Made by a program: the position numbers and the translations under genes. From Nitrospirales bacterium (GTDB taxonomy: Bacteria > Nitrospirota > Nitrospiria > Nitrospirales > UBA8639): a DNA stretch of 64,000 nucleotides. Each line of letters starts with the position of its first letter. Positions within the stretch are counted from its first letter, which is position 1. The stretch lies in contig OZ242026.1 of NCBI GenBank assembly GCA_965204965.1, positions 1,738,458-1,802,457 on the forward strand, given 5' to 3'. The notes below the pieces were generated by a model. The model worked only from the letters and a program-made list of their open reading frames with translations. It was not told the DNA's origin and made no database searches. Positions 8,425 to 51,529 of the stretch are shown in pieces.

Positions 8425-8566
8425 GGAACCTCTGATTTCTTGTGATAGCGGGATGGAGGGCAAGGCGTCCCGGAGCGAAACCCGAGGCTTATCAGAGAGA
8501 TAGGTGAGGGGTGAGCGAGGACACAACGCAGCCATGCGCCCGATAGTGCACTAAATCAGAGGTTCC
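8425..8566 (-). mobile_element. 142-bp MITE-like element, copy 1 (inverted relative to copies 2 and 3)
   Basis: 14-bp terminal inverted repeats GGAACCTCTGATTT...AAATCAGAGGTTCC. Flanked by direct ATAA/ATAA. Near-identical to 50622..50763 and 51388..51529 when reverse-complemented. Confidence 0.75.
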
Positions 8567-8600
8567 ATAACGTGTTCACGAACGTCTCCAGGAGTCACCC

Positions 8601-9275
8601 ATGACGTCTTCCATTATCGAAATTCAAAAGGTGTCCCATTCGTACTTCCGGGACGACATCGAAATCCCCGTCCTGAGGGAACTGACGCTCACTATCGCCT
8701 CCGGGAGTTTTGTCGCCTTACTGGGTCCGTCCGGGTCCGGGAAAACCACTGTCCTGAATCTCATGGCGGGCTTCGACCGCCCCTTGCACGGACACGTGTC
8801 CATCAATGAGACCAACGTCAGCCGGCTCTCCGAGCGCCAACTGGCACGATGGCGAGCAAAGACGCTCGGTTTCATCTTTCAGTTTTACAACCTGATTCCG
8901 GTCCTGACGGCGGCCGAAAACGTGGAGTTGCCGTTGCTGCTGACCTCCTTGTCCCGCACACAGCGTGCGAAACACGTGGCGACAGCGCTACGTCTCGTCG
9001 GACTGGGAAACCGGATGACGCACTATCCCCGTCAACTCTCCGGAGGGCAGGAACAGCGCGTGGCCATTGCACGAGCAATCGTGATGGACCCGGCGATTCT
9101 CCTTGCCGATGAGCCGACGGGCAACCTGGATAGTGAGGCCGCGGAAGACATCATGACTCTTCTCCAACGCCTGAACGAGGAACAAGGTAAAACCATCGTG
9201 CTGGTCACCCACGATCTCGAGGCCGCCCAGCGCGCCACAACCATCTGTAAACTGCACAAGGGAAAAATGGAGTAG
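8601..9275 (+). CDS. ABC transporter ATP-binding protein (MacB/LolD-like)
   Basis: Walker A GPSGSGKTT, signature LSGGQEQRVAIARA, Walker B ILLADEPTGNLD. Confidence 0.9.
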   Translation: MTSSIIEIQKVSHSYFRDDIEIPVLRELTLTIASGSFVALLGPSGSGKTTVLNLMAGFDRPLHGHVSINETNVSRLSERQLARWRAKTLGFIFQFYNLIPVLTAAENVELPLLLTSLSRTQRAKHVATALRLVGLGNRMTHYPRQLSGGQEQRVAIARAIVMDPAILLADEPTGNLDSEAAEDIMTLLQRLNEEQGKTIVLVTHDLEAAQRATTICKLHKGKME

Positions 9276-10442
9276 ATGCTGCTTCGCTACGTCACTCGCA
9301 ACCTGACCCGTCATCCGCTCCGGGCGGCCTTAACCATTCTGACCGTGAGCCTTATCATTCTGGCCTTTGGTCTCCTTCGCACAATGATCACGGCCTGGTA
9401 CGGAGATTCCATCGGCACACCACCCGATCGTCTGCGAACCCGGCATGCCGTTTCTCTTACCTTTCAACTACCGGTGACGTATCAGGAACGCATCGCCGCT
9501 ATTCCCGGCGTGAGCGGGGTCTCCTACGGCAACTGGTTCGGCGGACGATGGAAGGACGGCAAAGCGTTTTTCCCACGCTTTGCCGTGGACCCGGTCTCGT
9601 ATTTGGCCGTCCATCCCGAGATTCAATTGCCTGCCTCCCAACGGGAGGCCTTCCTCCGCGATCGTCGTGCCTGCATCGTCGGGCAAGAGCTGGCTGCCAA
9701 ACGCAATTGGCAGGTTGGCGACATCGTCCGTATTCAAGGCAGTCTCTACCCGGGTGATTGGGAATTCACAATAAAGGGCATCTATACGGGAACGACGCCT
9801 ACCGCCGATGAAGGAAACATGTATCTTCACTGGGTCGCGGTCGACGAGCGACGACGCATCGAAGACCCGGATCGTGCCGGGACCGTCGGCTGGTTTGTCG
9901 TCCGCATGGCCAACCCCGAGAAAGCCGCCCAAGTCTCCGCGGCCATCGACCGGACCTTTACCAATTCCATGGCGGAAACGCGAACGGAGACGGAGCAGGC
10001 GTTTCGTGCAAATATGATCGCCATGTCCGGCGCCGTGATTCGCGTGGTTGAAATCATGTCATTTCTTATCCTGGGAATCAGCCTCCTGGTTGTCGCCAAT
10101 GCCATGGCCATGACCGTCCGGGAACGGCATCATGAATACGGCATCTTGAAGACGATGGGGTTTCGGGCGCCTCATCTCGGTTTCCTGATTTTTGGCGAAT
10201 CCGTGTGTCTGGCTCTCTTCGGCGGAATTCTGGGGGTGGCGCTGTTGTATCCCGCAAGCAAGGGGTTCGGCATGTTCCTCGCCGGCACTGTTGGTGGATT
10301 GTTCGGGACTCTTGAGTTACCTGTCCACTTGCCGGTGCTGGCAGTGTCACTCAGCGTGGGAATCGGTCTTCTGGGAGCGGTCATCCCGTTCTTCCTGTGC
10401 CTGCGCAGCCCGATTCGGGAGGAACTCCGTCACGTAGGATGA
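9276..10442 (+). CDS. ABC transporter permease, FtsX/MacB family
   Basis: N-terminal LRYVTRNLTRHPLRAALTILTV, a large periplasmic loop, and a C-terminal 3-TM FtsX block (RERHHEYGILKTMGF). Confidence 0.85.
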   Translation: MLLRYVTRNLTRHPLRAALTILTVSLIILAFGLLRTMITAWYGDSIGTPPDRLRTRHAVSLTFQLPVTYQERIAAIPGVSGVSYGNWFGGRWKDGKAFFPRFAVDPVSYLAVHPEIQLPASQREAFLRDRRACIVGQELAAKRNWQVGDIVRIQGSLYPGDWEFTIKGIYTGTTPTADEGNMYLHWVAVDERRRIEDPDRAGTVGWFVVRMANPEKAAQVSAAIDRTFTNSMAETRTETEQAFRANMIAMSGAVIRVVEIMSFLILGISLLVVANAMAMTVRERHHEYGILKTMGFRAPHLGFLIFGESVCLALFGGILGVALLYPASKGFGMFLAGTVGGLFGTLELPVHLPVLAVSLSVGIGLLGAVIPFFLCLRSPIREELRHVG

Positions 10443-10470
10443 CGACCGAACCAAGCTGTATGCAGATGTT

Positions 10471-10506
10471 CCCCTCCTTTGTAAGGAGGGGCGAGGGGAG
10501 GTAGAG
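10471..10506. repeat. REP-like palindrome type II
   Basis: CCCCTCCTT-TGT-AAGGAGGGG followed by CGAGGGGAGGTAGAG. Confidence 0.7.
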
Positions 10507-10512
10507 AGCGTC

Positions 10513-11681: not shown

Positions 11682-11716
11682 CCCTGCCGCTCGGTCCGAG
11701 GGCATGCCACCCCCAC

Positions 11717-11819
11717 ATTTCCGGCAATCGGACATGTTAATCCGGCGATTGGACATGTTCGAGGGAGTTCCACCTGTTATATACTTGCTTGATTTTGAAA
11801 ATTGGTTTCATGATTAAAC
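11717..11819 (+). promoter_or_regulatory. composite regulatory module F (two 21-bp-phased direct repeats plus a Fur-box-like AT block) upstream of tonB
   Basis: ATTTCCGGCAATCGGACATG | TTAATCCGGCGATTGGACATG at 11717-11757, then TTGATTTTGAAAATTGGTTTCATGATTAAAC at 11789-11819. Confidence 0.55.
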
Positions 11820-11850
11820 ATATAGACATCTGAACCGGCAACGATCGGAA

Positions 11851-13146: not shown

Positions 13147-13184
13147 GTACTCGGAAACCATCTCATCACAAAGGAGAATGCATT

Positions 13185-13625: not shown

Positions 13626-13678
13626 CAATAGGCAACGACCTTGGACCATAAGGGTCAACCCAAGGAGAACGTGAGCGC

Positions 13679-14943: not shown

Positions 14944-14969
14944 GAGGCCAAGGAGCATTTAAGAAGCCA

Positions 14970-15075
14970 CTTTCCGGCAGATGGACATGGATTTCCGGTT
15001 AATGAACATGTCCAAGGATTCTGTTTGTGATAGGGTCTTATGCTGAAATTGATTATGCGTGTCATAATTGTATAT
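14970..15075 (+). promoter_or_regulatory. composite regulatory module U1 upstream of TBDR-1
   Basis: CTTTCCGGCAGATGGACATG | GATTTCCGGTTAATGAACATG at 14970-15010. TGAACA lies 17 nt upstream of TGTGAT. AT block TGCTGAAATTGATTATGCGTGTCATAATTGTATAT at 15041-15075. Confidence 0.55.
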
Positions 15076-15162: not shown

Positions 15163-17499
15163 ATGAAGAGATTCTGGCTTATGGCCGTCCTTGTGTTTCT
15201 TGTATTTTCAACAACCCCAGCTCTCGCGCAAGATGCTGAAGACTCACAAACACAGAAAGTCAAGTTGAGGCTGGAACAGGTCACGATCAGCGCGACCAAG
15301 ACCAAACGGGACACGTTGACCACCCCGGGCGAAGTCAGCGTCCTGAACCAGGAGTATTTTCAACAACGCCAGGCGCAAAGCCTCGACGACGTGTTGCGCT
15401 ACGAACCGGGCGTAACGTCGGGCGGGGGTCCACGGACCATGGCGGAGGGCCCGAACATTCGAGGACTGTCCGGAGATCGCGTCCTTACGCTGCTGGACGG
15501 CATGCGGCTCACCTTCCAATCCGGGCACAAGGGCCGCCTCTTCATAGACATGGACCAACTCAAACAAGTCGAGGTGATTCGCGGACCGGGCTCGGCCCTG
15601 TACGGCAGCCAGGCCGTGGGCGGGGTCGTGGCCATGGAGACCAAGGATCCTTCCGATTATCTGGCCCCGGACATGACGTACGGCATACGGCAAAAGTTCG
15701 GCTACCAATACGCCAATGAAGAGTTGCTCTCCACCACGACCTTATCGGCCCGCCTCACCGATCAGGTCGCGGTCATGACCAGCGGCACTTTCAGGGCCGG
15801 GGAGAACGTTCGCCTCGGCGGTGACTTGGACCGTTTATCCAATTCCGCCCAAGACACCGCGGCCAATCTGAGCAAAATCGTCTGGACACCGACTCCGTAC
15901 GACGAGGCCGAGTTCTCCGTTCAAGCTACTCGACAAGCCGCACAGATCCCCTTCCAGGCTAATTCCATGCCCACCCAGCAAAGTTCCATTGCGGACCGGG
16001 TGAATCGTCAAATCACCTATCGTCTGGGATACACGCATAATGATCCGGCGAACCCCTACCTGGACCTCCGGGGGTTCGTCTATCTGACGACGCTGGACGT
16101 CACGGAAAGCCGGATTACCGATGCATCTCAACGAGACGATTTCGGTTTTGATACCTTTGGATATGATCTCAGGAATTCCATGAACTTCGGCGATCCCTCG
16201 ACGCACCACCACATCGTGACCTTCGGATCGGAATATTTCCGGAACACGCAAGAGAGCACGGGAAGTCGGTATACCAATGAATTCTTTGTTTACACCCCGG
16301 GCCAACGCTGTAATCCACGGGCAGGATTGCTTCCTCCTCGCTGCGGCTTCGTGCCCCCGTATTTCACTACCCCTATTCCTGCCGGCCTGACTGCCGCAAC
16401 CACTCCCCTGGGAGCCGAAACATTTTTCCCTGCTGCAAAAGCCGATACCTTTGCCCTGTACGTTCAGGACGAGATGACGATTGTCGACCGCGTCACCCTC
16501 ATTCCCGCGCTACGCTGGGATAATTGGGAGAATAGAGCGTCCGGCCGGGAAACCAGATCCGCCAGTGTCCTCAACCCGAAAATCGGAACGGTCATCCAGG
16601 TCACGGACTTCCTGTTTCTCACGGCAAACTACGCCCATGGATTCCGTCAACCCACGTTCGGGGAACTCTTTATCTCCGGCACGCATTTGCCCGGCAGCGT
16701 ATTTCGGGCGAATCCCGACTTGAAACCGGAACGCAGCCGGAATATCGACGCCGGATTCCGCCTGAATGTGCCCAAGGTGCTTTCCAACAACGATCAGTTC
16801 ATTTTCAAGGGGACTTACTTCAGAAACACGTTCAAGGATTTTATTGACTTTGTCTCCGGAGGATCGGGCACACCGCACGTGTGCAATACTGAAATGCCGA
16901 ATTTCAGACAAGGACAGAGGCCTTGTCCCTGGATCAGTTTTGGCACTTCCGCACGGCCGGGATTCCACCTGGGCACACTCCTTCAGCAGGGACAGCCAAA
17001 TATCCAAACGTTCAGGAACGTGCCTGATGCTCTGATCCACGGAGTGGAAGCCGAGTTTGAATGGCGCGCGATTGAGAACGTCGTCCTGTCCGGGAACTAC
17101 ACCTTCACGCACGGTACGGATCAAACCAATGGACGGCCAATAAACAACATTCCCCCGAATCGCGGCGTGCTGGGGATCGACTATTTCTACGATGCTTGGG
17201 GATTAAACCTGGGGGCCCGATCGCAAATGGTAGCCGATCAGGATCGCGTGCCGGTCTCCGATGATCCCTTCGTGGCCGGGACCCCAACCCCCGGCTACGT
17301 GCTGTTCGACATCTGGGCCAATGTGCAACCGGCCAAGGCATTGCTCCCCGAGCTTCCGAAGTCGTGGCTTCAAGGGTTTCGCCTCAACCTGGGGGTGGAT
17401 AACCTGACGGACCGTAACTACCGGCGGCATTTGTCATCCCTTCCCGAGGCGGGAGTCAATCCCAAGATATCGTTTTGGTACTCCTTGAATCTGCCCTGA
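15163..17499 (+). CDS. TonB-dependent outer-membrane receptor, paralog 1 (heme-receptor-like motifs)
   Basis: Signal peptide, plug domain (TLTTPGEVSVLNQEYFQQRQAQSLDDVLRYEPGV), GFRQPTFGELFISGTHLPGSVFRANPDLKPE (FRAP-like, His, NPNL-like), and a C-terminal ...FWYSLNLP. Confidence 0.9.
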   Translation: MKRFWLMAVLVFLVFSTTPALAQDAEDSQTQKVKLRLEQVTISATKTKRDTLTTPGEVSVLNQEYFQQRQAQSLDDVLRYEPGVTSGGGPRTMAEGPNIRGLSGDRVLTLLDGMRLTFQSGHKGRLFIDMDQLKQVEVIRGPGSALYGSQAVGGVVAMETKDPSDYLAPDMTYGIRQKFGYQYANEELLSTTTLSARLTDQVAVMTSGTFRAGENVRLGGDLDRLSNSAQDTAANLSKIVWTPTPYDEAEFSVQATRQAAQIPFQANSMPTQQSSIADRVNRQITYRLGYTHNDPANPYLDLRGFVYLTTLDVTESRITDASQRDDFGFDTFGYDLRNSMNFGDPSTHHHIVTFGSEYFRNTQESTGSRYTNEFFVYTPGQRCNPRAGLLPPRCGFVPPYFTTPIPAGLTAATTPLGAETFFPAAKADTFALYVQDEMTIVDRVTLIPALRWDNWENRASGRETRSASVLNPKIGTVIQVTDFLFLTANYAHGFRQPTFGELFISGTHLPGSVFRANPDLKPERSRNIDAGFRLNVPKVLSNNDQFIFKGTYFRNTFKDFIDFVSGGSGTPHVCNTEMPNFRQGQRPCPWISFGTSARPGFHLGTLLQQGQPNIQTFRNVPDALIHGVEAEFEWRAIENVVLSGNYTFTHGTDQTNGRPINNIPPNRGVLGIDYFYDAWGLNLGARSQMVADQDRVPVSDDPFVAGTPTPGYVLFDIWANVQPAKALLPELPKSWLQGFRLNLGVDNLTDRNYRRHLSSLPEAGVNPKISFWYSLNLP

Positions 17500-17564
17500 T
17501 GTCCACGTCATCAGACCCGTGACTTTCTGCGGCTCCTCCTTTTCCCCCTGCGGAAGTCACGTCC

Positions 17565-17597
17565 GAGAGGCCGGCAAATGTCGGCCTCTCTTTTTTT
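17565..17597 (+). terminator. rho-independent terminator after TBDR-1
   Basis: GAGAGGCCG-GCAAATGT-CGGCCTCTC followed by T7. Confidence 0.8.
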
Positions 17598-17726
17598 CCG
17601 GGACCACGATTCCTACCGTCAGACGCCTATCGTAGCGCCAAACCGAGTGGCGCTCAGCGCGTCCCGTTGAATACGACCTACAGCTTTCTGGGGCGAAAAA
17701 TTACCCCGGAAGACACTGAAGCGCTA

Positions 17727-17826
17727 TTTTTCCGGTAGATCAACATGCTTTTCCGGTCTCTGAACATTTTCAAAGGGTGGAATTTATGATTATTATTTGA
17801 AATTAGTTATGCGTATCAAGATCATA
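17727..17826 (+). promoter_or_regulatory. composite regulatory module U2 upstream of TBDR-2
   Basis: TTTTTCCGGTAGATCAACATG | CTTTTCCGGTCTCTGAACATT at 17727-17768. TGAACA (17761-17766), an 18-nt spacer, then TATGAT (17785-17790). Fur-box-like TGATTATTATTTGAAATTAGTTATGC follows. Confidence 0.6.
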
Positions 17827-17897
17827 TCCGCAAAGCCCTCTTGCATGCATTTCAAGATCCACCCCGTCACTCATCATCGCTAATCAAGGAGGGCTGT

Positions 17898-20039
17898 ATG
17901 CATAAACCATTTACTCTCTTGGCAGTCGTTCTGCTTCTGGGTCTTTTCACAAGCCAGGCGCACGCGCAGGGCACTGAAGAAACCGAAGCCGAGGGACCCC
18001 CTAAAATCAAGATGCGACTCCAACAGGTCACAGTCAGCGCGACTAAAACCGAACGGGATCCGTTGACCACCCCTGGCGAGGTGAACGTCCTGACCCAGGA
18101 ATATTTTCAGCAGCGCCAGGCCCAAAGCCTGGACGACGTCCTGCGCTATGAACCGGGCGTTGATTCGATTTTAGGCCCGCGAACCATGGGAGAGAGCCCG
18201 AATATTCGAGGGCTGTCGGGTGCGCGGGTGCTCACGCTGGTGGATGGTGTCCGGCTCAACTTTCAATCCGGGCACAGAGGCCGCCTCTTTTTGGATATGG
18301 ATCAACTCAAGCAAGTCGAAGTGATTCGCGGACCGGGATCGGCCCTGTACGGCAGCCAGGCCCTGGGCGGGGTCGTCGCCATGGAGACCAAGGACCCCTC
18401 CGACTATCTGGCTCCGGACATGCAGTACGGCATACGACAAAAGCTCGGCTACCAATACGGCAATGAAGAACTGCTCTCCACCACCACCCTATCGGGCTGG
18501 CTCACCGGTCAGATCGAAGTCATGACCGCCAACACCATTCGGGCCTCCGGGGATATTCGACTCGGCGGCGACCTGCCGCGCTTGGCCAATTCCTCGCAAG
18601 ACACCTATGGGAATTTGAGCAAGATCGTCTGGGTACCGACTGCGCACGATCGAGCTGAATTTTCCCTTCAAGCCAATCGACAAACCGCGCGGATCCCCTT
18701 CAGCACCACCTCGACAACCACTTCACCCACATCCATCAGCGACCGTGTGAACCGTACGTTCACGTATCGCTTGGAGTACAAACATAATAATCCGTCGAAT
18801 CCGTATTTGAATCTTCAGGGATTCGCCTATCTCACGACCATGGACATCGACCAAACCGTGATTGCCAATCAGCAAAAAGACCACATCCGTTACGATACCT
18901 TGGGATATGACATACGAAATTCCATGAATTTCGGCAATCCTTCGTCTCATCATCACATCGTGACCATCGGGTCGGAATTTTTCCGGAACTCCCAGGAGGG
19001 GAGAGGGAATCGGATCAGCAGCTTTTCAGGGGCTCCGACGGGAGCCCCGCTGTATTGGCCCACCGCGGAATCGAGCGTCTTCGCCCTGTACGTGCAGGAC
19101 GAGATGACGATCATGGATCGCCTCACCGTGATTCCCGCCCTCCGATGGGATCATTGGGACAACGAGAGGGACGGACAGGAAACCAGATCTTTGGGTGTCC
19201 TCAACCCGAAAATCGGCGCCGTCTATCAGGTCACGGATTTCCTGTATCTTTCGGCGAACTACGCCCATGGATTCCGGCAACCCACGTTCCAGAACCTCTT
19301 TATCTCCGGCACGCACTTTCCGGGTACCGTTTTCGCTCCCAATCCCGACCTGGGCCCGGAACGCAGCCGGAATATCGACTTGGGCGTCCGGGTCAACCTG
19401 CCCAAGATGCTTTCCGATGATGACCGGTTCATTTTCAAGGGAGCGTATTTCAGAAACCAACTCAGAGATTTCATTGCCACGAACACGGTGTGTCCCGATG
19501 GTTCCCCGCCACGGGGGTTCTTCAACCCTTGCACCTCCGGACAGGCCATGACCGTCTACTATAACGTCCAACAGGCCCTGATCCAGGGCTGGGAGGCGGA
19601 ATTCGAATGGCGTGTCAGTGACAGCCTGGTTTTGAACGGGAACTACAGTCAGGCCCACGGGACTGATGAAATATCCAATATGCCATTACCCAACATTCAG
19701 CCGCGACGCGGTCTACTGAGCATCAACTATCTCTACGCGCCGTGGGGATTGTCTCTCGGCGCCCGAACGCAAATGGTGGCCGACATTACCCGAGTGCCGA
19801 TCCCGAGTTTCGGCGATCCAAATACACCCGGAGGCTACGCGATCTTCGATATCTGGGCCATCGTGCAACCCGGCACGGCCCTGTTGCCCGAACTCCCCAA
19901 ATCATGGCTTCAGGGATGGCAGGTAAACCTTGGAGTCGATAACCTGTTCGATCGCGAATATCGTCGAAACTTGTCACCTCTTCAGGAGATGGGGGTCAAT
20001 CCCAAGATACAGGTGTGGTACAACCTTAATCTTCCTTAA
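17898..20039 (+). CDS. TonB-dependent outer-membrane receptor, paralog 2
   Basis: AAGGAGGG SD then ATG at 17898, signal peptide MHKPFTLLAVVLLLGLFTSQAHA, a plug nearly identical to paralog 3, and GFRQPTFQNLFISGTHFPGTVFAPNPDLGPE. Confidence 0.9.
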   Translation: MHKPFTLLAVVLLLGLFTSQAHAQGTEETEAEGPPKIKMRLQQVTVSATKTERDPLTTPGEVNVLTQEYFQQRQAQSLDDVLRYEPGVDSILGPRTMGESPNIRGLSGARVLTLVDGVRLNFQSGHRGRLFLDMDQLKQVEVIRGPGSALYGSQALGGVVAMETKDPSDYLAPDMQYGIRQKLGYQYGNEELLSTTTLSGWLTGQIEVMTANTIRASGDIRLGGDLPRLANSSQDTYGNLSKIVWVPTAHDRAEFSLQANRQTARIPFSTTSTTTSPTSISDRVNRTFTYRLEYKHNNPSNPYLNLQGFAYLTTMDIDQTVIANQQKDHIRYDTLGYDIRNSMNFGNPSSHHHIVTIGSEFFRNSQEGRGNRISSFSGAPTGAPLYWPTAESSVFALYVQDEMTIMDRLTVIPALRWDHWDNERDGQETRSLGVLNPKIGAVYQVTDFLYLSANYAHGFRQPTFQNLFISGTHFPGTVFAPNPDLGPERSRNIDLGVRVNLPKMLSDDDRFIFKGAYFRNQLRDFIATNTVCPDGSPPRGFFNPCTSGQAMTVYYNVQQALIQGWEAEFEWRVSDSLVLNGNYSQAHGTDEISNMPLPNIQPRRGLLSINYLYAPWGLSLGARTQMVADITRVPIPSFGDPNTPGGYAIFDIWAIVQPGTALLPELPKSWLQGWQVNLGVDNLFDREYRRNLSPLQEMGVNPKIQVWYNLNLP

Positions 20040-20104
20040 CGCGCACAGACGGAGACCCGTGACTCTCTGCTACTCCTCCTTTCCCCCCTGCGGGAGTCAC
20101 GTCC

Positions 20105-20136
20105 GAGAGGCCGGTCTTTGCCGGCCTCTCTTTTTT
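20105..20136 (+). terminator. rho-independent terminator after TBDR-2
   Basis: GAGAGGCCGG-TCTTTG-CCGGCCTCTC followed by T6. Confidence 0.8.
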
Positions 20137-20256
20137 CCGGGATCACCAGTCCTACCGTCAGACGCTCGGCCTCGCGCTCAACAACGTTCGACTCGGCACG
20201 TCCCGTTGAATACGCCCTACAACCCTTTGGGGCGAAGAATTATCCCTGAAGCGCTA

Positions 20257-20354
20257 TTTTCCGGCAGATCGACATGCTTTTCCGGTCTCCGAACATTTCC
20301 ATACAGCTGGGTTTATGATTATCATTTGATATTGGTTATGCATGTCAAGATCAG
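20257..20354 (+). promoter_or_regulatory. composite regulatory module U3 upstream of TBDR-3
   Basis: TTTTCCGGCAGATCGACATG | CTTTTCCGGTCTCCGAACATT at 20257-20297. CGAACA, an 18-nt spacer, then TATGAT. Fur-box-like TGATTATCATTTGATATTGGTTATGC follows. Confidence 0.6.
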
Positions 20355-20424
20355 TATATGAAGGCCTCTTGCACCTTTTGAGATCAACTCCCGTCACTCA
20401 TCATCGCTAATCAAGGAGGGCTCC

Positions 20425-22521
20425 ATGCATAAACCACTTACTTGCCTGGCAGTCCTTCTGCTTATGGGGTTTTTTACAGGCCAGGCGCAGGCGCGGGACA
20501 CTGAAGAGGCCGAAGCCGAGGGGCCCCCTAAAATCAAGATGCGGCTCCAACAGGTCACGGTCAGCGCGACCAAAACCGAACGGGATCCGTTGACCACCCC
20601 TGGCGAAGTGAGCGTCCTGACCCAGGAATATTTTCAACAACGCCAGGCCCAAAGCCTGGACGACGTCCTGCGCTATGAACCGGGCGTTGATTCACGGATA
20701 GGCCCCAGAAACATGGGTGAGGGTCCGAATATTCGAGGATTGCAGCGTGCGCGGGTCCTGACGCTGCTGGACGGCGTCAGACTCAACTTTCAGGCCGGGC
20801 ACAAAGGCCGCATCTTTATTGACATGGATCAACTCAAACAAGTGGAGGTGGTTCGCGGTCCGAACTCGGCCTTGTACGGCAGCCAAGCGCTGGGGGGTGT
20901 CGTGGCCATGGTGACCAAAGACCCTTCCGATTATCTGGCCCCGGACATGCAGTACGGCATCCGTGAAAAATTCGGTTACCAGTACGTCAATGAGGAACTG
21001 CTGTCCACCACCACCTTATCAGCCCGCCTCACCAAGAACGTGGAATTCATGGCCAGTGGGACCTACCGGGCCGGCGAGAATATTCGACTCGGCGGCGACT
21101 TGCCGCGTTTGGCCAACTCCGCCCAGGACACCGCAGCCGGATTGACCAAACTAGTGTGGAAACCGACGCCGTATGACGAAGCCAAATTGTCCATTCAAGC
21201 CACTCGCCAGGCCGCGCGCATTCCCTTCAATACCAACTCCGGAACCTCCTCAACGAGGTCCATCTCCGACCGCGAGAACCGTCAAGTCACGTACCGCTTG
21301 GGTTATGCCCATCATAATCCGGCCAATCCGTATTTGAACCTCCGGGGGTTCGTGTATCTGACGACGCTGGACATCACGGAAATCCAGCTTTCCAATCAGG
21401 CAAGGGACGATATCACTTTCGACACGTTCGGGTATGATCTCAGAAATTCCATGAACTTCGGCAATCCTTCATCGAACCATCACATCGTGACCTTCGGATC
21501 CGAATTTTACCGGAACAGCCAAACGGGTGACGGAAGTCGCACAACCTCTTCCGGAGGACTCACGGGAGCCCGGGTGTTTTATCCCGATGCGGACTCTGAC
21601 GTTTTCGCCCTGTACCTGCAGGATGAGATCACCATCATGAATCGCCTCAACCTCATCCCCGCCTTGCGCTGGGATCATTGGAAAAATACGGCGCCGGACC
21701 AAGACGCCCAATCCGTGGGTGTCCTCAACCCGAAAATCGGCGCGGTGTTTCAAGTGACAGACTCTCTGTTCCTGACGGCAAACTATGCCCATGGTTTCCG
21801 GCAACCGACGTTTGCCCAGCTCTTTATCTCCGGCACGCATGCCGCGGGAAGCATTTTTGTTCCGAATCCCGACCTGAGTCCGGAACGGAGCCGGAACATC
21901 GACGTGGGATTCCGGGTGAAATTGCCAAAGATGCTCTTCAACCAGGATCGATTCATTTTCAAGGGAGCCTACTTCAGAAACCAGATCAGGGACTACATTG
22001 CCCTGTTCCGCTATGGACCGAGAAACATCAACAGAACCTACCGGAACATCGGAAATGCCATGATCCATGGCATGGAGGCGGAATTCGAATGGCGCGTCCT
22101 TCAGAACCTCGCCCTGCGCGGTAACTACAGCCTGGCGCACGGCACGGATGAAACCCTGGATAATCCACTGCCGGACATTACGCCTCAACGTGGGGTCTTG
22201 GGCATCGATTATCTGCACCAGCCTTGGGGATTGACCATGGGCGGCCGCACTCAAATGGTCGGCAACCAGGAACGCGTGCCGAGACCGGCGCGGGGCTCCA
22301 GACAGAGAACCGGCGGCTTTGTCATCTTCGATATCTACGCCACGGTGCAACCCGCCCGGGCGTTGCTCCCCGAACTTCCAAAATCATGGTTGCAAGGGTT
22401 TCAACTCAACATCGGCGTCGACAACCTAACGGATCGAAAGTACCGCCGGCATCTGTCATCCCTTCCCGAAGCCGGGGTCAATCCCAAGATATCGTTTTGG
22501 TACTCCATTAACTTTCCCTGA
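20425..22521 (+). CDS. TonB-dependent outer-membrane receptor, paralog 3
   Basis: Signal peptide MHKPLTCLAVLLLMGFFTGQAQA, plug domain, GFRQPTFAQLFISGTHAAGSIFVPNPDLSPE, and a C-terminal ...FWYSINFP. Confidence 0.9.
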   Translation: MHKPLTCLAVLLLMGFFTGQAQARDTEEAEAEGPPKIKMRLQQVTVSATKTERDPLTTPGEVSVLTQEYFQQRQAQSLDDVLRYEPGVDSRIGPRNMGEGPNIRGLQRARVLTLLDGVRLNFQAGHKGRIFIDMDQLKQVEVVRGPNSALYGSQALGGVVAMVTKDPSDYLAPDMQYGIREKFGYQYVNEELLSTTTLSARLTKNVEFMASGTYRAGENIRLGGDLPRLANSAQDTAAGLTKLVWKPTPYDEAKLSIQATRQAARIPFNTNSGTSSTRSISDRENRQVTYRLGYAHHNPANPYLNLRGFVYLTTLDITEIQLSNQARDDITFDTFGYDLRNSMNFGNPSSNHHIVTFGSEFYRNSQTGDGSRTTSSGGLTGARVFYPDADSDVFALYLQDEITIMNRLNLIPALRWDHWKNTAPDQDAQSVGVLNPKIGAVFQVTDSLFLTANYAHGFRQPTFAQLFISGTHAAGSIFVPNPDLSPERSRNIDVGFRVKLPKMLFNQDRFIFKGAYFRNQIRDYIALFRYGPRNINRTYRNIGNAMIHGMEAEFEWRVLQNLALRGNYSLAHGTDETLDNPLPDITPQRGVLGIDYLHQPWGLTMGGRTQMVGNQERVPRPARGSRQRTGGFVIFDIYATVQPARALLPELPKSWLQGFQLNIGVDNLTDRKYRRHLSSLPEAGVNPKISFWYSINFP

Positions 22522-25950: not shown

Positions 25951-25970
25951 ACTTCGCAAAGGAAAATCTA

Positions 25971-26075
25971 CAACCGGTTATCGGACATCCTTTTCCGGCA
26001 AATGAACATGTACGTCCGTTGCCGCAAACTGCTATCATCTAAAACTTGATATTGATTCCTTATTTCAATATTAAG
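25971..26075 (+). promoter_or_regulatory. composite regulatory module D upstream of the CbiX-like gene
   Basis: CAACCGGTTATCGGACATC | CTTTTCCGGCAAATGAACATG at 25971-26010. AT block GCTATCATCTAAAACTTGATATTGATTCCTTATTTCAATATTAAG at 26031-26075, containing the inverted repeat ATATTGA...TCAATAT. Confidence 0.55.
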
Positions 26076-29483: not shown

Positions 29484-29485
29484 GT

Positions 29486-30917: not shown

Positions 30918-30927
30918 ACGTTTTCAC

Positions 30928-31040
30928 CCGAACCGGCGGATCAACATGTTTTCCCGGAAAATGAACATGGCCAAGACATAACCTCCATGATAGACTTATG
31001 ATGATATTGAGTTCTATTACTATAATCACTATTAATTGAC
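30928..31040 (+). promoter_or_regulatory. composite regulatory module E
   Basis: CCCGAACCGGCGGATCAACATG | TTTTCCCGGAAAATGAACATG at 30928-30969. TGAACA, an 18-nt spacer, then CATGAT. AT block ...TGATGATATTGAGTTCTATTACTATAATCACTATTAATTGAC. Confidence 0.5.
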
Positions 31041-32043: not shown

Positions 32044-33063
32044 ATGGTTATACGAACCCTCTTCATCATCGGAAGTATTCTGTTAGGATTTGCCCTAGGT
32101 TCAAGCTACGGACCGGAAACGGTCACCTACGGCCTCTTGGGCGGCTTTTTGCTCGGATTGCTAGGCATCGGCGTACTCAAATTGGAACGCATGATATTTC
32201 CCCTGCAATTCCATGAGGCGTTGTGTGGTTTTGCCGGTTTTTCGATTGGAATTTGCTTAAGTGGGATAACCAGCTTTCTCAGCCAACAGATTTTTCTCCA
32301 ACGTCCTGAAATTGTTCCCTTCGTCACCGCTTCCACTATGGTCGGTTTCTGCTACCTCGGCCTCATGCTGGGCATCCGACTGGGAAGGAAAATTTCTTTT
32401 GATCCTGTCTCGTACGGCACTGACTCCTCATCACAAACGCAGCAACCGAAGATCCTTGATACCAGCGCCATTATCGATGGACGCATTGCAGATTTATCCC
32501 GGACGGGATTTCTGGAGGGACCGCTCCTCGTCCCGCAATTCGTCCTCCACGAACTTCAGCGCATTTCGGATTCCTCTGACGGCCATAGACGCATTCGTGG
32601 AAAGCGTGGTCTCGACATTCTCCAGGAACTCACAAACATGGAAACCAGCAACGTCCAGATCGTTGATGTCGATTTTCCTCAGTTTTCCGATGTCGACAAC
32701 AAATTGGTGGCGATGGCGAAACTCCACAACGCGAAAATCGTGACCACCGACATGAACCTTAATAAGGTGGCTTCCGTCCAGGGAATATCGATTTTAAATA
32801 CTCATGAATTATCGAACGCAATGCGACCGGTCGTCTTGCCCGGCGAGGCATTAAAGGTCTTCTTCCTACGGGAAGGGAAAGAGGCGGGACAGGGCGTGGC
32901 GCACCTGGATGATGGAACCATGGTTGTCGTCGATCATGCCAGACGATGGATCGGGAAACACGTCGAGGTGATCGTCACCAGCGTCATTCAAACCAACGCG
33001 GGGCGTATGATTTTCTCCAGTCTTCGTGAAGGAACGCCTCGGTTGCAGGCCAGTTACGGCTGA
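32044..33063 (+). CDS. membrane-anchored PIN/TRAM domain protein (YacL-like)
   Basis: N-terminal TM segments, a PIN domain (ILDTSAIIDGRIADL...NKLVAMAKLHNAKIVTTDMNLNKVA), and a TRAM-like C-terminus (GKHVEVIVTSVIQTNAGRMIF). Confidence 0.8.
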   Translation: MVIRTLFIIGSILLGFALGSSYGPETVTYGLLGGFLLGLLGIGVLKLERMIFPLQFHEALCGFAGFSIGICLSGITSFLSQQIFLQRPEIVPFVTASTMVGFCYLGLMLGIRLGRKISFDPVSYGTDSSSQTQQPKILDTSAIIDGRIADLSRTGFLEGPLLVPQFVLHELQRISDSSDGHRRIRGKRGLDILQELTNMETSNVQIVDVDFPQFSDVDNKLVAMAKLHNAKIVTTDMNLNKVASVQGISILNTHELSNAMRPVVLPGEALKVFFLREGKEAGQGVAHLDDGTMVVVDHARRWIGKHVEVIVTSVIQTNAGRMIFSSLREGTPRLQASYG

Positions 33064-33129
33064 GATCGGCTGTTCCTTTCTTTTCGTCGCAAAACGCTCC
33101 TCGCTGTAACATGCTTTACCGTGGATCGT

Positions 33130-33420
33130 CGGATTGCAGAAATCGATCAATCTGATCTTGCAGTCTCGTTTGAATGGATTCGCACGTCGCGGCGTCTTCG
33201 ACTTTGTCGCCGTTGCGTGAAACACGTCCACGACTTGGTCGAGACGCGTGCCGATCTTGGCCGGGTTGACTGCATGCCCGAGAGCAGCGTTTTCGCGATT
33301 CTCTGAAGCAAGCCCTGCTTGTCATCGGCAAAGACGTTGATCGCGGCAAAGTGGTCCGACGTATCACTGTCGATTTTGTCCCCAGTGCGATTGCGGTGAA
33401 TCGGCATGCGGTCTACTTCA
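33130..33420 (-). pseudogene. decayed duplicate of the 3' end (last ACT domain) of glnD
   Basis: The DNA aligns by eye with 34870-35170, for example GTTTGAATGGATTC(G/A)CACGTCGC and GTGGTCCGACGTATCA. It has an approximately 10-nt deletion that breaks the frame. The peptide pieces DSDTSDHFAAINVFADDKQGLLQRIAKTL compare with DNDTSDHFTVIDVFADDKQGLLHEIAKTL. Confidence 0.75.
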
Positions 33421-34863: not shown

Positions 34864-37662
34864 TCATTGTCCCTCGTCATCTTGCAAGAAACGATCGACC
34901 TGCTCTTTCAACTTCGTTTGAATGGATTCACACGTCGCCGTTTCTTCGACTTTGTTGCCGTTGCGTTCCGTGACGTGGAACACGTCCACAACCTGGTCGA
35001 GACGCGTGCCGATCTTAGCCGAGTGGACTGAAAGCCCGAGGGCATGCAGCGTTTTGGCGATCTCATGCAGCAGGCCTTGTTTGTCATCGGCAAACACGTC
35101 GATTACGGTAAAGTGGTCCGACGTATCATTATCAATCTTGACCTCGGTGCGGTTCCGGCGAATCGGTTTTTGGCTCCCAAATGACACGCGTCGATTCTGT
35201 GCCATAAAGGCTTCAATCGAGAGTTCTCCCTTCAACACACTGACGATCGCCTTTCCCACTTTTTCCAACCTCGCCGGCGTCGGCTCGCCGATGAAATCAG
35301 GGTCTTTGACCCAAAACGTATCTACCACAACGCCGTCAGGTTTCGTCACAATCTGAGCGTCAAGCACCCGCAGGCCCTTGGCAGCCAACACGCCCGTCAT
35401 CTTCATGAACATCCCGGACGCCATGGAATCAAAAGCAATGAGCGAATACTCACAGACCTTGAGTTCACGGTTGTAGGTGGAGACAACCCCGGGACGCTCC
35501 ACGGTCAGGGATCGGATGGCGGAAAGGTGCGCAATGATACGATTTTTGGCCGTGCCGGAAAGATACCGTACCGGAAACGTCTCCAATTGGCTCTTGACCC
35601 ACTCACGGTTCGGAGGAGCCTGGCTCTCGTCAGCTTGTTCACCCGCCGCCACGTGGGAAGCCGACGATTTCCAAGCCGCCAGGACCTCGTGCGTGACGTC
35701 CTCGATGTGCGAAGCGGATTCCACCCCTGCGCTTTGTCCGGACACTTCAGGAAGGGACATATGATAGAGTTCAATCAACAACGCTTCTTTCCATTTCGTC
35801 AGCACGCCCGGCCCCACCGCCGCAATGTCCGCGGCCGTCAGAAGCAAGAGTTGTTTCAAGCGTTCGGGAGCGTCCACGGCCCGGCTGAACGTGTGCCGCA
35901 CTTTTTCATCATGAGGATCCCGTCGAAAAGCCGTATTGGCCATCAACAGGTGTTCATGAACCAGGAACTCCAGGGTTCGGGATTCTTGTACATCAAGTCC
36001 TAATCTGACGGATACGTCCTGAGCGATCTTTCGGCCGACTTCGCTGTGGTCTTCAGGGAGGCCTTTCCCCACGTCGTGAAGAAGCACGGCCAGGTGCAGA
36101 AGATCCTTCTCTCGAATTTCCTGGTACGCCTGGCCCAACATTCCCGGTTGTTTCCCTAACGTCTCGACTTTTTTCACGGCCAGGAGGCTATGTTCGTCCA
36201 CCGTATATTTGTGGTATTGGTTGAATTGCATGAGGCCCCGTACACGACCAAAAGCGGGAATCAGTTTTTCCAAAACCCGAGCCTGATGCATTGACGTCAA
36301 GGTATCGGCAACTGCCTCGGGTCCTGACAATATTTCTCGAAACCCCCGACTGACGTCCTGGGTAGCAAACAGATGGTCCGGTACGCCTTCCATGTGGCGA
36401 TGAATCTCTTCCAGCACCAACCCATCAACCGGTACGCCTTGTTTTTGCGAGACCTGAAAGAGGCTCAAGAGATGCTTCGGCTCATCAAGGACCTGCATGA
36501 TTTTGTCCTCATGGATGGACAACTTCCCGTCAACCGTTTGAAAAAAGCCGTCGATCAACGGAGCCGGCCACAGTCGTCTGAGGCGAGTCCAGAGGTTTGC
36601 GGAATCTGCACGCTCCGCAAATCGCATCGCACGCTGATGAATGCCGGTAGTCAGACGATAATACTGCTGCATGAACTGTTCGACGCCCAGCAGATGCGGT
36701 TCATCGCGATAGCCAAACTCTTCAGCCATGCGCACTTGTTCGTCGAACGACAATATTTCCTGGGCGCGCCCTGCGCCCAAATGGAGCAAGGCGCGCACTT
36801 TGAACAAAAACTCTCTTGCTTCGAGCAAGGCCGAATAATCATGATGCGCCAAGACGCCACGATCGACCAACTCCTGCAACGTGGAGGCTTGGTACCGGGC
36901 CATGCCGACCCATTGCAGCAAGTGGGCGTCTCTTAACCCACCTTTACTTTTCTTGACGTTCGGTTCCAAGAGAAACACGGTCTCTCCGAACTTGGCATAG
37001 TCCTGCTCCCGTTCTTCGAGTTTCTCGCGGATGAAATTCCCCACTCGTTTTCCCAGCACGCGCTTGGCAAACCGTCGTTGAAACTCTTGAAAGACGACCG
37101 GATTGCCGACCAAAAACCGTGACTCCATCAGCGCGGTTTTAGCCGACAAATCCCCCTCTGCCACGACCATACAATCGTGAATCGACCGGACACTATGACC
37201 CACCTGAAACCCCAAATCCCACAAATGGTGAAACACTTGCTTGGAGAGATCCTGAACGACCGTGCCACCGCCGGCGCGATACAGCATCATGACGTCGATA
37301 TCGGAAAACGGAGCCAGTTCACGCCGGCCGTACCCTCCCACGGCCACCAGACAACAGTGCTGCATACCCGAAGACGTATCGCCGCTCAGTTGCCTGATCA
37401 CGCTTCGATATCTACCGATCAGGACCGTATCCACGAGGAAGGTAAAATCCGACACGACTTCCGTCCCGGACGCCCCTTCGCGCAATCGCCCGAGCATGCC
37501 TTCACGGCGCGCCTCAAGGACGGCTTGCGTGGAGGTCGCCCCCGATTGAGACGAACCCACCACTTGTTCCATAGGTTCCTGATTCACCGACGTACCCCTG
37601 TGACGTTGTCGTCCATCACGTTCCTGATTTCCTCGTATACCGGCTTGAACATTGTGCGTCAA
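34864..37662 (-). CDS. glnD: [protein-PII] uridylyltransferase / uridylyl-removing enzyme
   Basis: Nucleotidyltransferase domain (VAVGGYGRRELAPFSDIDVMMLY), HD domain (LAVLLHDVGKG), and two C-terminal ACT domains. The exact start is uncertain. Confidence 0.9.
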   Translation of the reverse strand: MTHNVQAGIRGNQERDGRQRHRGTSVNQEPMEQVVGSSQSGATSTQAVLEARREGMLGRLREGASGTEVVSDFTFLVDTVLIGRYRSVIRQLSGDTSSGMQHCCLVAVGGYGRRELAPFSDIDVMMLYRAGGGTVVQDLSKQVFHHLWDLGFQVGHSVRSIHDCMVVAEGDLSAKTALMESRFLVGNPVVFQEFQRRFAKRVLGKRVGNFIREKLEEREQDYAKFGETVFLLEPNVKKSKGGLRDAHLLQWVGMARYQASTLQELVDRGVLAHHDYSALLEAREFLFKVRALLHLGAGRAQEILSFDEQVRMAEEFGYRDEPHLLGVEQFMQQYYRLTTGIHQRAMRFAERADSANLWTRLRRLWPAPLIDGFFQTVDGKLSIHEDKIMQVLDEPKHLLSLFQVSQKQGVPVDGLVLEEIHRHMEGVPDHLFATQDVSRGFREILSGPEAVADTLTSMHQARVLEKLIPAFGRVRGLMQFNQYHKYTVDEHSLLAVKKVETLGKQPGMLGQAYQEIREKDLLHLAVLLHDVGKGLPEDHSEVGRKIAQDVSVRLGLDVQESRTLEFLVHEHLLMANTAFRRDPHDEKVRHTFSRAVDAPERLKQLLLLTAADIAAVGPGVLTKWKEALLIELYHMSLPEVSGQSAGVESASHIEDVTHEVLAAWKSSASHVAAGEQADESQAPPNREWVKSQLETFPVRYLSGTAKNRIIAHLSAIRSLTVERPGVVSTYNRELKVCEYSLIAFDSMASGMFMKMTGVLAAKGLRVLDAQIVTKPDGVVVDTFWVKDPDFIGEPTPARLEKVGKAIVSVLKGELSIEAFMAQNRRVSFGSQKPIRRNRTEVKIDNDTSDHFTVIDVFADDKQGLLHEIAKTLHALGLSVHSAKIGTRLDQVVDVFHVTERNGNKVEETATCESIQTKLKEQVDRFLQDDEGQ

Positions 37663-40869: not shown

Positions 40870-40888
40870 CTCAAGAATGTCCAAGTTT

Positions 40889-40924
40889 CCCTCTCCCCGC
40901 GGGAGAGGGTTTGGATAAGGGGTC
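40889..40924. repeat. REP-like palindrome type I
   Basis: CCCTCTCCC-CGC-GGGAGAGGG followed by TTTGGATAAGGGG, in the aroB / GAF-ANTAR intergenic region. Confidence 0.75.
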
Positions 40925-47151: not shown

Positions 47152-47224
47152 GTCGACCTAAGGTGAGTCTTTGTCATCGGGAAAAACAATACGGGGGTGA
47201 AGCGCCGTCACGGAGCGGGCCGCT

Positions 47225-48757: not shown

Positions 48758-48779
48758 TATCCGGACTGGCCCGACACGT

Positions 48780-49523: not shown

Positions 49524-49552
49524 GTCAGCGATGGTCCACGGCCTGGCGGCCC

Positions 49553-50077
49553 CTACTCTTCGAGAATCACCACGTGGGACCCGCCCTCGACGACACTCCG
49601 TTCTTCTTTTAAAAACATGGTCATTTGGGCTCCCTTGATCTTGGTCCCACCTTGCCAGGCCACCGGCGACTCCGTCAGCACAAGTTTTTCTTCATCTTTA
49701 TAATACAACGCGCGCCCACACGTCGCTTTCCCATCCGATTTCTCAATGACCACTTTGCCGTTCGCCTCGATGCGGTCAACCTGATGTGCGGTCCCCTCTT
49801 CCGTTTGCCGGCTTCCATTTTTCGCGCTCTCTTTGAACGTTACCACCATGTGGTCCGAGCGCATGACAAAGTTCCCTTTCTTGAGGACCACCGTTCCTTC
49901 GAAGATCGTCTGTCTGGATTTTCCTTGGACGGTCATTGTCTCTGACGTAATCGTCGTTTCCTCTTTTTTCTGGGCAAAGGCGCAAGGAACGGCCTGCGCC
50001 GACACAAGGCCAAAGACGAGCAATCCAATGAAGATCGAGTGACCGTATTCAAGACGTAATGTGGACGTGGACATCAT
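49553..50077 (-). CDS. lptA: LPS transport periplasmic protein LptA (OstA-like)
   Basis: Signal peptide and a beta-jellyroll-like repeat pattern. It lies between lptC and lptB. Confidence 0.7.
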
Positions 50078-50615
50078 CGAGAACTCCTAATTTTTCTGTT
50101 TTCAACTCTGCAACCAACCCGTTACCCGTTATAATCAATCCGGGACCGTGTATGGTGACCGGCCTATCCGTGCTGATGGTCTGCTCTGCATCCACCCAGT
50201 GTACGTGCGGGGTCAGGATTGTGTATCCATTGACCAAAGCAATCGCAATCAATTCATCTTCGTTTCGTAGATCGAAATCGCCGCTGGCCGTATTGATCGT
50301 TCCTTCGTCAGCCTCCAACTCCATGTTTTGCCCTGCCTTGCCGAACAAACGAACCTGAACGCGCTTCAACAGGACGTGTTGTTCGGATTCACGGCTTTCC
50401 GCTTTTAGCGCTTCCACCTCCCACTGGACCCGCCCGTCTTCGGTTTGCCGGTATACAAAACCCTCGATACCAGCATCGGTCGTTTCAAAGACCGGTTCCG
50501 TTACAAGAGGGAGAGGTTGGTTGGACTGCATTTGCTGCATGAGGACATACCCGAGAAAGCCTGCCAAACACAGGGTCATCCCCCTTAGAATCCATCGAAT
50601 CCATGAGCGAAACAT
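50049..50615 (-). CDS. lptC: LPS export system protein LptC-like
   Basis: A single N-terminal TM anchor, about 190 aa, immediately upstream of lptA. Confidence 0.6.
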   Translation of the reverse strand: MFRSWIRWILRGMTLCLAGFLGYVLMQQMQSNQPLPLVTEPVFETTDAGIEGFVYRQTEDGRVQWEVEALKAESRESEQHVLLKRVQVRLFGKAGQNMELEADEGTINTASGDFDLRNEDELIAIALVNGYTILTPHVHWVDAEQTISTDRPVTIHGPGLIITGNGLVAELKTEKLGVLDDVHVHITS

Positions 50616-50621
50616 CGGTTA

Positions 50622-50763
50622 GGAACCTCTGATTTATCGCACTATCGGGCGCATGGCTGCGTTGTGTCCTCGCTCACCCCTCACCTCTCTCTCTGATAAG
50701 CCTCGGGGTTCGCTCCGGGACGCCTTGCCCTGCATCCCGCTATCACCATAAATCAGAGGTTCC
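50622..50763 (+). mobile_element. 142-bp MITE-like element, copy 2
   Basis: Terminal inverted repeats (TIRs) GGAACCTCTGATTT...AAATCAGAGGTTCC. Direct GTTA/GTTA flanks. It starts 6 nt from the lptC start codon. Confidence 0.75.
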
Positions 50764-50952
50764 GTTAGCACGTCAATGATGGCTTGGAAGGAATTTGAAA
50801 CACAATACCATACGCCCCCAACCAAGTAAACTAAACGGCCGTTCAGACGCGCTGATGCTTGACTATGAATGGGAAATCCGCGGGGGACAGGCTGTCATGT
50901 CACGGACTCCCGTAAGGCCGGACATGCGAGGAGGAAGGGACTGCCAAAAAGC

Positions 50953-51360
50953 TTATGACGCCTTGTCTTCGGTCACCGGTTCGTCCACGTCCACACTCAC
51001 CGGCCCGCGTTCAATCAGTTCAACCGCCACAAGTTCCGCGGCATCCCCGGGGCGCCGTCTCGTTGGGATGATCCGAACGTACCCTCCGGACCGGCGATCG
51101 AACCGTCCGGCAACGTCACCGAATAACTTGGAGACGACGTCTTTTTTTCGGATGAAAGTCAAGGCTTGCCTTCGCGCGTGCAGAGAACCTTCTTTCCCTA
51201 GGGTGATCATTCTTTCTGTGAGGCCGCGAAGCTCTTTCGCTTTGGCCTCCGTGGTCTCGATACGTTCGTGTTCCAGTAACGCAGTGACCAAGTTCCGAAA
51301 CATCGCGTGGCGATGTTTGGTATTGCGCCCTAATTGTCTGCCTTTTTTTCGATGTCGCAT
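50953..51360 (-). CDS. rplQ: 50S ribosomal protein L17
   Basis: MRHRKKGRQLGRNTKHRHAMFRNLVTALLEHERIETT. Confidence 0.95.
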   Translation of the reverse strand: MRHRKKGRQLGRNTKHRHAMFRNLVTALLEHERIETTEAKAKELRGLTERMITLGKEGSLHARRQALTFIRKKDVVSKLFGDVAGRFDRRSGGYVRIIPTRRRPGDAAELVAVELIERGPVSVDVDEPVTEDKAS

Positions 51361-51387
51361 TCCGTCGCTCTCTTGATAATATGTTAC

Positions 51388-51529
51388 GGAACCTCTGCTT
51401 TATTGCACTATCGGGCGTATGGCGGCGTTGTGTCCTCGCTCAACCCTCACCTATCTCTCTGATAAGCCTCGGGGTTCGCTGCGGGACGCCTTGCCCTCCA
51501 TCCCGCTATCACAATAAATCAAAGGTTCC
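51388..51529 (+). mobile_element. 142-bp MITE-like element, copy 3
   Basis: TIRs GGAACCTCTGCTTT...AAATCAAAGGTTCC (one mismatch each). It fills the rpoA-rplQ spacer and abuts the rpoA stop codon at 51530-51532. Confidence 0.75.

Follow-up and report, generated by a model that had tools for sequence, protein, structure and literature searches.

A dispersed 142-bp non-coding repeat of Nitrospirales with the features of a miniature transposon, a strand bias and slowly diverging orthologous copies

Results

Three 142-bp repeats lie between co-directional genes

We analysed a 64,000-nt stretch of chromosomal DNA (about 55% G+C; hereafter the window) from contig OZ242026.1 of a Nitrospirales bacterium, in which three near-identical 142-bp repeats occupy gene spacers. 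Copy 1 follows a gene for a HlyD-type membrane-fusion protein and precedes a gene for a MacB-type ABC ATPase, and copies 2 and 3 lie on either side of rplQ, towards lptC and rpoA, respectively (Table 1). All three spacers separate co-directional genes, and at each of them it is the G-rich strand of the repeat that would appear in the mRNA. The evidence presented below indicates that these repeats are very probably copies of a small non-coding, non-autonomous transposon, in other words a transposable element of the miniature inverted-repeat type (MITE), from a family of Nitrospirales whose orthologous copies change unusually slowly.

The three repeats are real. An earlier, sequence-only reading of the window had described near-identical copies of 142 bp with one mismatch at each end of copy 3, and had given their flanks as ATAA/ATAA, GTTA/GTTA and TTAC/CTAA; ends, lengths, mismatches and flanks were all recovered as described. 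With up to two mismatches allowed, the 14-mer GGAACCTCTGATTT occurred six times in the window and only at the six element ends; dinucleotide-preserving shuffles contained it 0.49 times on average, and 0 of 100 reached six. A three-way alignment extended by 20 bp of flank showed near-complete identity inside the element and a background level right outside both ends. The terminal inverted repeats (TIRs) measure 14–15 bp in the window copies, in agreement with the 14 bp reported before, but the consensus TIR of the family, GGAACCTCTGATTTATTG, is 18 bp long.

The interior is an imperfect palindrome without coding capacity, as had been proposed: within the 142 bp, the sole ATG-initiated open reading frame (ORF) has 32 codons, and its ATG is lost in copies carrying G at column 33. 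The long-hairpin potential was likewise borne out, with a fold energy of −58.1 kcal/mol (z = −5.6) for the strand of copy 2 as written and of −70.2 kcal/mol (z = −7.4) for its G-rich complement.

Table 1 Coordinates of the repeat copies and of other features (window positions unless preceded by the number of a scan locus, L; TSD, target-site duplication)
Feature	Position	Strand	Remark
HlyD-type membrane-fusion gene	7099-8424		directly upstream of copy 1
Copy 1, left TSD (ATAA)	8421-8424		holds the TAA stop codon of the upstream HlyD-type gene
142-bp repeat, copy 1	8425-8566	− (inverted)	142 bp
Copy 1, right TSD (ATAA)	8567-8570		
MacB-type ABC ATPase gene	8601-9275		starts 34 bp downstream of copy 1
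lptC	50049-50615	minus	copy 2 between lptC and rplQ
Copy 2, left TSD (GTTA)	50618-50621		
142-bp repeat, copy 2	50622-50763	+	142 bp; site empty in L001 and L074
Copy 2, right TSD (GTTA)	50764-50767		empty site in L001: single TAAC, opposite strand
rplQ	50953-51360	minus	between copies 2 and 3
Copy 3, left TSD, decayed	51384-51387		TTAC in the window; TTAA in L074 and L001-L003
142-bp repeat, copy 3	51388-51529	+	142 bp; 1 mismatch per TIR
Copy 3, right TSD (CTAA)	51530-51533		overlaps the rpoA stop codon (TAG, minus strand)
rpoA	51530-52540	minus	copy 3 between rpoA and rplQ
MITE copies with palindromic insert in right TIR	L005:5847-6043, L021:2195-2419, L027:3437-3605, L083:2563-2731		
MITE copies with palindromic insert in left TIR	L056:4239-4407, L056:~1091-1258, L094:834-1002		
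49-nt motif	11713-11761, 14966-15014, 17724-17772, 20253-20301, 25966-26014, 30925-30973		six copies
Tandem TonB-dependent receptor genes	15163-22521		three paralogues: 778, 732 and 698 aa
Short CCCTCTCCCTTGGnGGGAGAGGGCTGGGGTGAGGGG repeat	1412-1455, 4200-4240, 5571-5607, 40887-40923	both orientations	
~280-bp stretch	33126-33404		downstream of the ORF at 32044-33063
Match of the ~280-bp stretch	34874-35166		3' end of the GlnD-like uridylyltransferase gene (34864-37662, minus)

The repeat forms a family of sharply bounded copies in Nitrospirales

When one genome of each prokaryotic species was scanned with an exact 18-mer from the element centre, at least 98 stretches matched, at least 93 of them from Nitrospirales, and at least 13 species-level Nitrospirales or Nitrospira metagenome-assembled genomes (MAGs) carry the family. 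Five matches listed from other phyla (L016, L043, L046, L050 and L065) were rejected as chance matches of 18–20 nt only. A blastn search of the scan loci identified at least 101 full-length copies with defined ends at 89 or more distinct insertion sites. The element measures exactly 142 bp at 81 of the 89 sites listed, and among the 81 aligned copies the mean column identity is 97%. Copies deviate from the consensus at a mean of 3.5 of the 124 positions outside the search 18-mer, pairwise identity is 95.0% between and 95.4% within genomes, and subfamily haplotypes (columns 16, 31, 33, 37, 94, 111 and 126) are common to up to five genomes.

Copy density is about 31 per Mb for non-anchor copies and 47 per Mb in the window; for genomes of 2.1–2.6 Mb, the size range of the complete chromosomes in this genome set, extrapolation gives tens to about 100 copies each. 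The preferred target includes TAA, and nearly all copies that survive are located between genes, many of them directly next to a stop codon contained in the TSD. A metagenome scan added five more sites with older copies of 86–91% identity and degenerate ends. Several short-read contigs start or stop inside a copy, suggesting that the family probably breaks assemblies.

Sequence variants were also seen within the family. Column 16, the first after the 15-bp perfect TIR, is hypervariable (T in 31, A in 23, G in 15 and C in 12 of the 81 copies), and nearly all other columns of this alignment are at least 90% conserved; column 16 is partly linked to the subfamily markers 31, 33 and 37 and differs within two of about 14 orthologous pairs. 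In one subfamily, the left or right TIR is interrupted between AAA and TCAGAGG by an additional palindrome of 27, 55 or 83 bp (CATGTCCTCGAC...CTTAATCGGGGA; Table 1), probably a second mini-element nested there through targeting of the TIR sequence. Nucleotides 9–11 of the TIR, counted inward from either end, are TGA (GGAACCTCTGA). Long ORFs of 329, 521 and 536 codons end at this TGA (L062:7298-7439, L099:524-665 and L067:6259-6400, respectively), with weaker cases at L009, L011 and L093, so the element provides the stop codon and the last two residues at some sites. Finally, an 81-bp internal-deletion derivative (1–49 joined to 105–142) was found at L076:205-285, a site orthologous to the full-length copy L011:1402-1543, and in the copy at L014:2272-2435 a 21-bp segment made up of the right end and adjoining flank is duplicated in tandem.

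Insertion duplicates 4 bp, and empty sites are found in relatives

Perfect 4-bp TSDs flank the element at 54 of the 89 sites listed, and another 25 of the 89 match at three of four bases, compared with a perfect match at 2 of 89 when the next four bases outward were used as a control. Perfect flanking repeats of 2 bp were found at 3 of the 89 sites, and repeats of 3 bp or of 5–8 bp at none of them. The target is palindromic and TTAA-like (base frequencies T 0.69, T 0.65, A 0.61 and A 0.63), with T or C at position 1 in 82%, A or G at position 4 in 76% and a core of T (65%) and A (61%).

Relatives of the rplQ region were obtained by an L17 protein look-up, which gave three metagenome contigs from close relatives; an exact-match contig look-up with the predicted rpoA and ABC ATPase translations returned none. 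Copy 3 is present in all three L17-bearing contigs with the same two TIR mutations, and it is common to L001, L002, L003 and L074, again with these mutations. The sequence-only reading had held that the flanks of copy 3 were not a clean duplication, which is correct for TTAC/CTAA in the window, but L074 has TTAA/CTAA at this site (a 3/4 match), and the flanks are therefore a decayed TSD. At the copy 2 locus, L001 reads GTGCTAAC followed directly by CTATG, where the window reads GTGCTAAC, the 142 bp and TAACCGATG; L001 holds one copy of the duplicated 4-mer. Copy 3 is thus an older insertion and copy 2 a recent one.

When flanks were compared between genomes, we found 35 filled/filled pairs and 16 filled/empty pairs, the latter at about 11 distinct sites. 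At most empty sites the two flanks overlap by exactly 4 bp, and empty sites with a single 4-mer are thus found in relatives, including at copy 2. This filled/empty polymorphism between genomes indicates transposition since these species diverged, and also since the divergence of strains whose flanks are about 99.5% identical. Sharp ends and TIRs throughout the genomes, the excess of 4-bp duplications over the control and the empty sites all uphold the original description of the repeat as MITE-like.

Stems of the predicted hairpin are not spared from substitution

No Rfam match was obtained for the window at the gathering score, nor around copies 2 and 3 at E ≤ 1. The RNAalifold covariation term was 0.04, corresponding to no covariation. 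Substitutions per column per sequence amounted to 0.031 in paired versus 0.021 in unpaired columns, and the per-copy fold energy equalled that of controls in which the same substitutions were placed at random positions. Selection on RNA structure was rejected on these grounds, as stems are not spared and covariation is absent. Copies shared at orthologous positions had been named earlier as a possible sign of a functional RNA rather than a mobile element; some copies are indeed shared across species and unusually conserved, side by side with clear mobility of the family.

Copies are biased in orientation relative to downstream genes

Genes were called with our own codon-usage caller, and orthologous sites were collapsed to 83 clusters before orientations were counted. 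Of the sites in gaps between co-directional genes, 37 would place the G-rich strand in the transcript, compared with 13 for the C-rich strand (binomial p = 0.0009). A start codon lies ahead of the left end in 52 cases, with a median separation of 39 bp and typically with the end 10–45 bp upstream of the codon; for the right end there are 28 cases with a median of 156 bp, only two of them within 45 bp. Since the target logo is symmetric and both TIRs are identical, this bias points to selection after insertion.

The C-rich strand holds 47 C versus 31 G and four CCUC motifs (consensus read by eye); CCUC is anti-Shine-Dalgarno-like, and the C-rich, G-poor make-up is that of Rho-loading sites. A C-rich transcript would be harmful near a downstream start codon, and Rho-dependent polarity or a sequestered downstream Shine-Dalgarno sequence could plausibly lie behind the bias.

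Orthologous copies diverge slowly within the element boundaries

We compared substitution rates over 14 orthologous pairs, 12 of which entered the distance bins. The element differed at 43 of 1988 positions (2.2%), compared with 2822 of 20660 third codon positions (13.7%), 809 of 8424 positions of other aligned intergenic DNA (9.6%) and 1126 of 41250 codon positions 1 and 2 (2.7%). Relative to nearby intergenic DNA and to third codon positions, change in orthologous copies is thus slower by a factor of about 4–6. The 18-mer requirement of the scan biases those 18 columns only, and the divergence without them is about 2.5%.

The dip is limited to the element, with flank divergence reaching 6.6% at 1–25 bp and 8.0% at 26–50 bp. 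Because the dip stops at the element and background divergence is back within 25 bp, an introgressed recombination tract was rejected as its cause. Candidate explanations for the slow change are sequence constraint or correction against other copies. The uniform conservation of loops and stems weighs against a simple constraint on hairpin stability, and host-level selection on the retained copies would be one reading of a pattern that is itself directly observed.

Other features of the window

Several further repeats were noted in the window (Table 1). A 49-nt motif of two direct half-repeats (TTTCCGG-N6-GAACATG-like) occurs six times, each about 90–200 bp upstream of a gene start; the genes below it are a TonB-domain gene, the three tandem TonB-dependent receptor genes, an unannotated 557-aa ORF and an HD-domain gene. 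This arrangement looks like a common regulator-binding site of a single uptake regulon. The three receptor paralogues share 60–92% DNA identity, and their upstream regions are duplicated as well. A second, unrelated short G+C-rich palindromic repeat, CCCTCTCCCTTGGnGGGAGAGGGCTGGGGTGAGGGG, is also present in metagenome loci L103 and L109, where it adjoins a MITE copy truncated at position 72. Lastly, the ~280-bp stretch that follows the ORF at 32044-33063 is 80–86% identical to the 3' end of the GlnD-like gene, which suggests a gene fragment or a diverged paralogue.

Discussion

The 142-bp repeats show all structural features of a MITE that we tested, namely size, sharp ends, TIRs, TSD, lack of coding capacity and dispersed, polymorphic copies, and we assign them with high confidence to a non-autonomous transposon family of Nitrospirales. 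In the proposed mechanism, a DDE-type transposase supplied in trans would bind both identical ends and make 4-bp staggered cuts at TTAA-like (YTAR-like) targets, the repair of which would produce the 4-bp duplication. A source of this trans-acting transposase should exist, and our best guess for it is a member of the IS5 subgroup of the IS5 family of insertion sequences (IS). A YTAR-like target with a 4-bp duplication is the ISfinder criterion for this subgroup, which reportedly also has GG ends, and the TSD, target and GG-starting ends of the present family fit that description. The core ACCT.TG of the IS5-family TIR GAGACCTTTGCAAAA listed in PMC4596501 is found in the MITE TIR too. Compared with the TIRs given there, the start of the MITE, GGAACCTCTG, matches ISNme1 (GAGACCTTTG) and BrickBuilt (GAGACCTTCG) only partially.

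Several points weigh against this reading or narrow it. A parent IS with the same TIRs, as envisaged from the sequence alone, was not recovered: 845 kb of Nitrospirales DNA contained no inverted TIR pair that was spaced 250–4000 bp and flanked by a TSD; none of the 27 TIR-like inverted pairs (≤4 mismatches) had matching 4-bp flanks, and the pairs looked at individually linked adjacent MITEs. When the loci were compared all against all by megablast, no intragenomic repeat longer than 300 bp emerged except the receptor paralogues of the window; a blastn search of 72,556 plasmids with the consensus yielded chance matches of 21–30 bp only (E ≥ 1), and a viral-contig scan gave 0 matches. With no autonomous partner found, the IS5 assignment draws on the length of the TSD, on the target and on a TIR similarity that is weak; duplications of 4 bp are also made by IS701 elements. 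The scan for promoter- or terminator-like consensus sequences, which covered copies 2 and 3 and their surroundings only, detected none; the best promoter-like match by eye was 8/12. In addition, copy numbers are lower bounds with decayed copies under-sampled, the scan having required an exact 18-mer, and the gene caller behind the orientation statistics was checked only on the ribosomal operon of the window, which it recovers correctly. Separately, the genes enclosed by one full-length and one truncated copy in L020 proved to be ribF, hemB and a CBS-domain gene rather than a transposase, and no TIR was found elsewhere in the window, whose ORFs were not all screened for transposase domains.

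On a different origin, the repeats would be genes for structured non-coding RNAs, or palindromes of the REP type, that multiplied by duplication or through a RAYT (IS200/IS605-type) enzyme instead of a DDE transposase. The long stable hairpin, the intergenic location and the failure to find a cognate transposase in the 845 kb of loci would suit such an origin. REP/RAYT and IS200/IS605 systems, however, make no duplications, and this origin is hardly credible given the 4-bp TSDs at 54 of 89 sites, the empty sites with a single 4-mer, the 18-bp TIRs with sharp ends, and the lack of covariation and of any Rfam match even at E ≤ 1. The remaining alternatives concern what has kept the copies alike since they inserted. 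On one account, the low divergence of orthologues would stem from concerted evolution, not function: ectopic gene conversion, acting between the tens of copies that a genome carries, would repeatedly bring each copy back to a common consensus. The near-equality of between-genome and within-genome identity, the star-like divergence of about 3% from one consensus, the end of the dip exactly at the element boundaries, as would be the case if other copies served as donors, and the uniform conservation of paired and unpaired columns all speak for such concerted evolution. It is nevertheless doubtful, if possible, as deep orthologues share derived variants (C33 and C140 in L036 and L047, for example), subfamily haplotypes persist in up to five genomes, and conversion alone leaves unexplained an identical consensus in 13 species whose third codon positions differ by 10–30%.

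The retention of shared derived variants by deep orthologous pairs, which argues against frequent gene conversion, would favour a reading in which many copies of this element, a MITE by origin, have been domesticated, each as a cis-acting RNA or DNA module kept by the host in intercistronic spacers and 5' leaders. Such a module might act as a hairpin that stabilises the mRNA or is processed by RNase, as a protein-binding site or, at its left end, as an outward promoter. Further points on this side are that divergence is reduced only inside the element, that the orientation bias of 37 to 13 goes together with left ends near start codons and right ends almost never there, and that copies in the essential rpoA–rplQ operon are kept across species. 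Yet compensatory substitutions are absent, paired columns are no better conserved than unpaired ones, fold energies equal those of the controls, and copies 2 and 3 lack a promoter or terminator consensus. The 16 empty versus 35 filled pairs further show that sites are polymorphic between species, so that most copies are dispensable; distant lineages carry decayed copies; and selection against harmful insertions alone can yield an orientation bias. We therefore consider domestication of many copies unlikely, and only tentatively suggest that, for part of the family, the hosts may have taken over copies in operon spacers and 5' leaders, including the rpoA–rplQ spacer, as a cis-element under sequence constraint, with one orientation and conservation of the whole 142 bp between species.

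Whatever keeps its copies alike, the transposon family appears new, of a known MITE kind: literature searches on MITEs in Nitrospira and on transposases of sponge Nitrospira turned up no account of the element. What remains novel is the strand bias, together with how slowly orthologous copies diverge. No other dispersed repeat was found in the Nitrospirales DNA sampled; the family can be miscalled as small ORFs, and it documents recent transposition in uncultured Nitrospirales with small genomes, the MAG names of which presumably point to marine sponge hosts. Because many species-level genomes exist, selection and gene conversion could be told apart in this group, and if copies were co-opted, they would offer a tractable ERIC-like case of why some bacterial intergenic repeats stay conserved well beyond what neutrality predicts.

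Among known systems, the family resembles the ERIC and Correia elements most closely in its behaviour. ERIC (also IRU; 127 bp, Enterobacteriaceae and Vibrio) and the present MITE are both imperfect palindromes of about 130–140 bp in transcribed intergenic regions, with tens of copies per genome and no known transposase. ERIC is reportedly conserved between copies and species, its orthologues changing more slowly than their surroundings. The hosts are enterobacteria and Vibrio in one case and Nitrospirales in the other, and the relationship is one of analogy only; moreover, ERIC is reported to use TA, whereas the MITE duplicates 4 bp at TTAA-like sites and has perfect 18-bp TIRs. The Correia elements of Neisseria (CREE/NEMIS, 100–155 bp) are likewise small MITEs with TIRs, high in copy number, located beside genes, co-transcribed as hairpins, orientation-dependent in their effects and lacking a known autonomous parent. 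They differ in their 26-bp TIR and TA duplication, compared with a different 18-bp TIR and a 4-bp TSD here, and in features documented for them, namely IHF sites, promoter boxes and RNase III processing; the scan around copies 2 and 3 of the present element found no promoter consensus. IS5-derived MITEs, such as the Neisseria ATR and the BrickBuilt/MITE239 elements of P. gingivalis (PMC4596501), are also short, intergenic and non-coding, and their TIRs, like those described here, start with G(G/A)(A/G)ACCT.TG, with a match that is only partial and an interior that in the present MITE has no similarity to any IS examined. REP/BIME elements are more distant, being 20–40 bp long, without a TSD and linked to a RAYT, in contrast to 142 bp with a 4-bp TSD. 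In combining mobility, strand bias and a 4–6-fold slower divergence of orthologous copies, the Nitrospirales MITE poses the ERIC puzzle again in an unrelated phylum.

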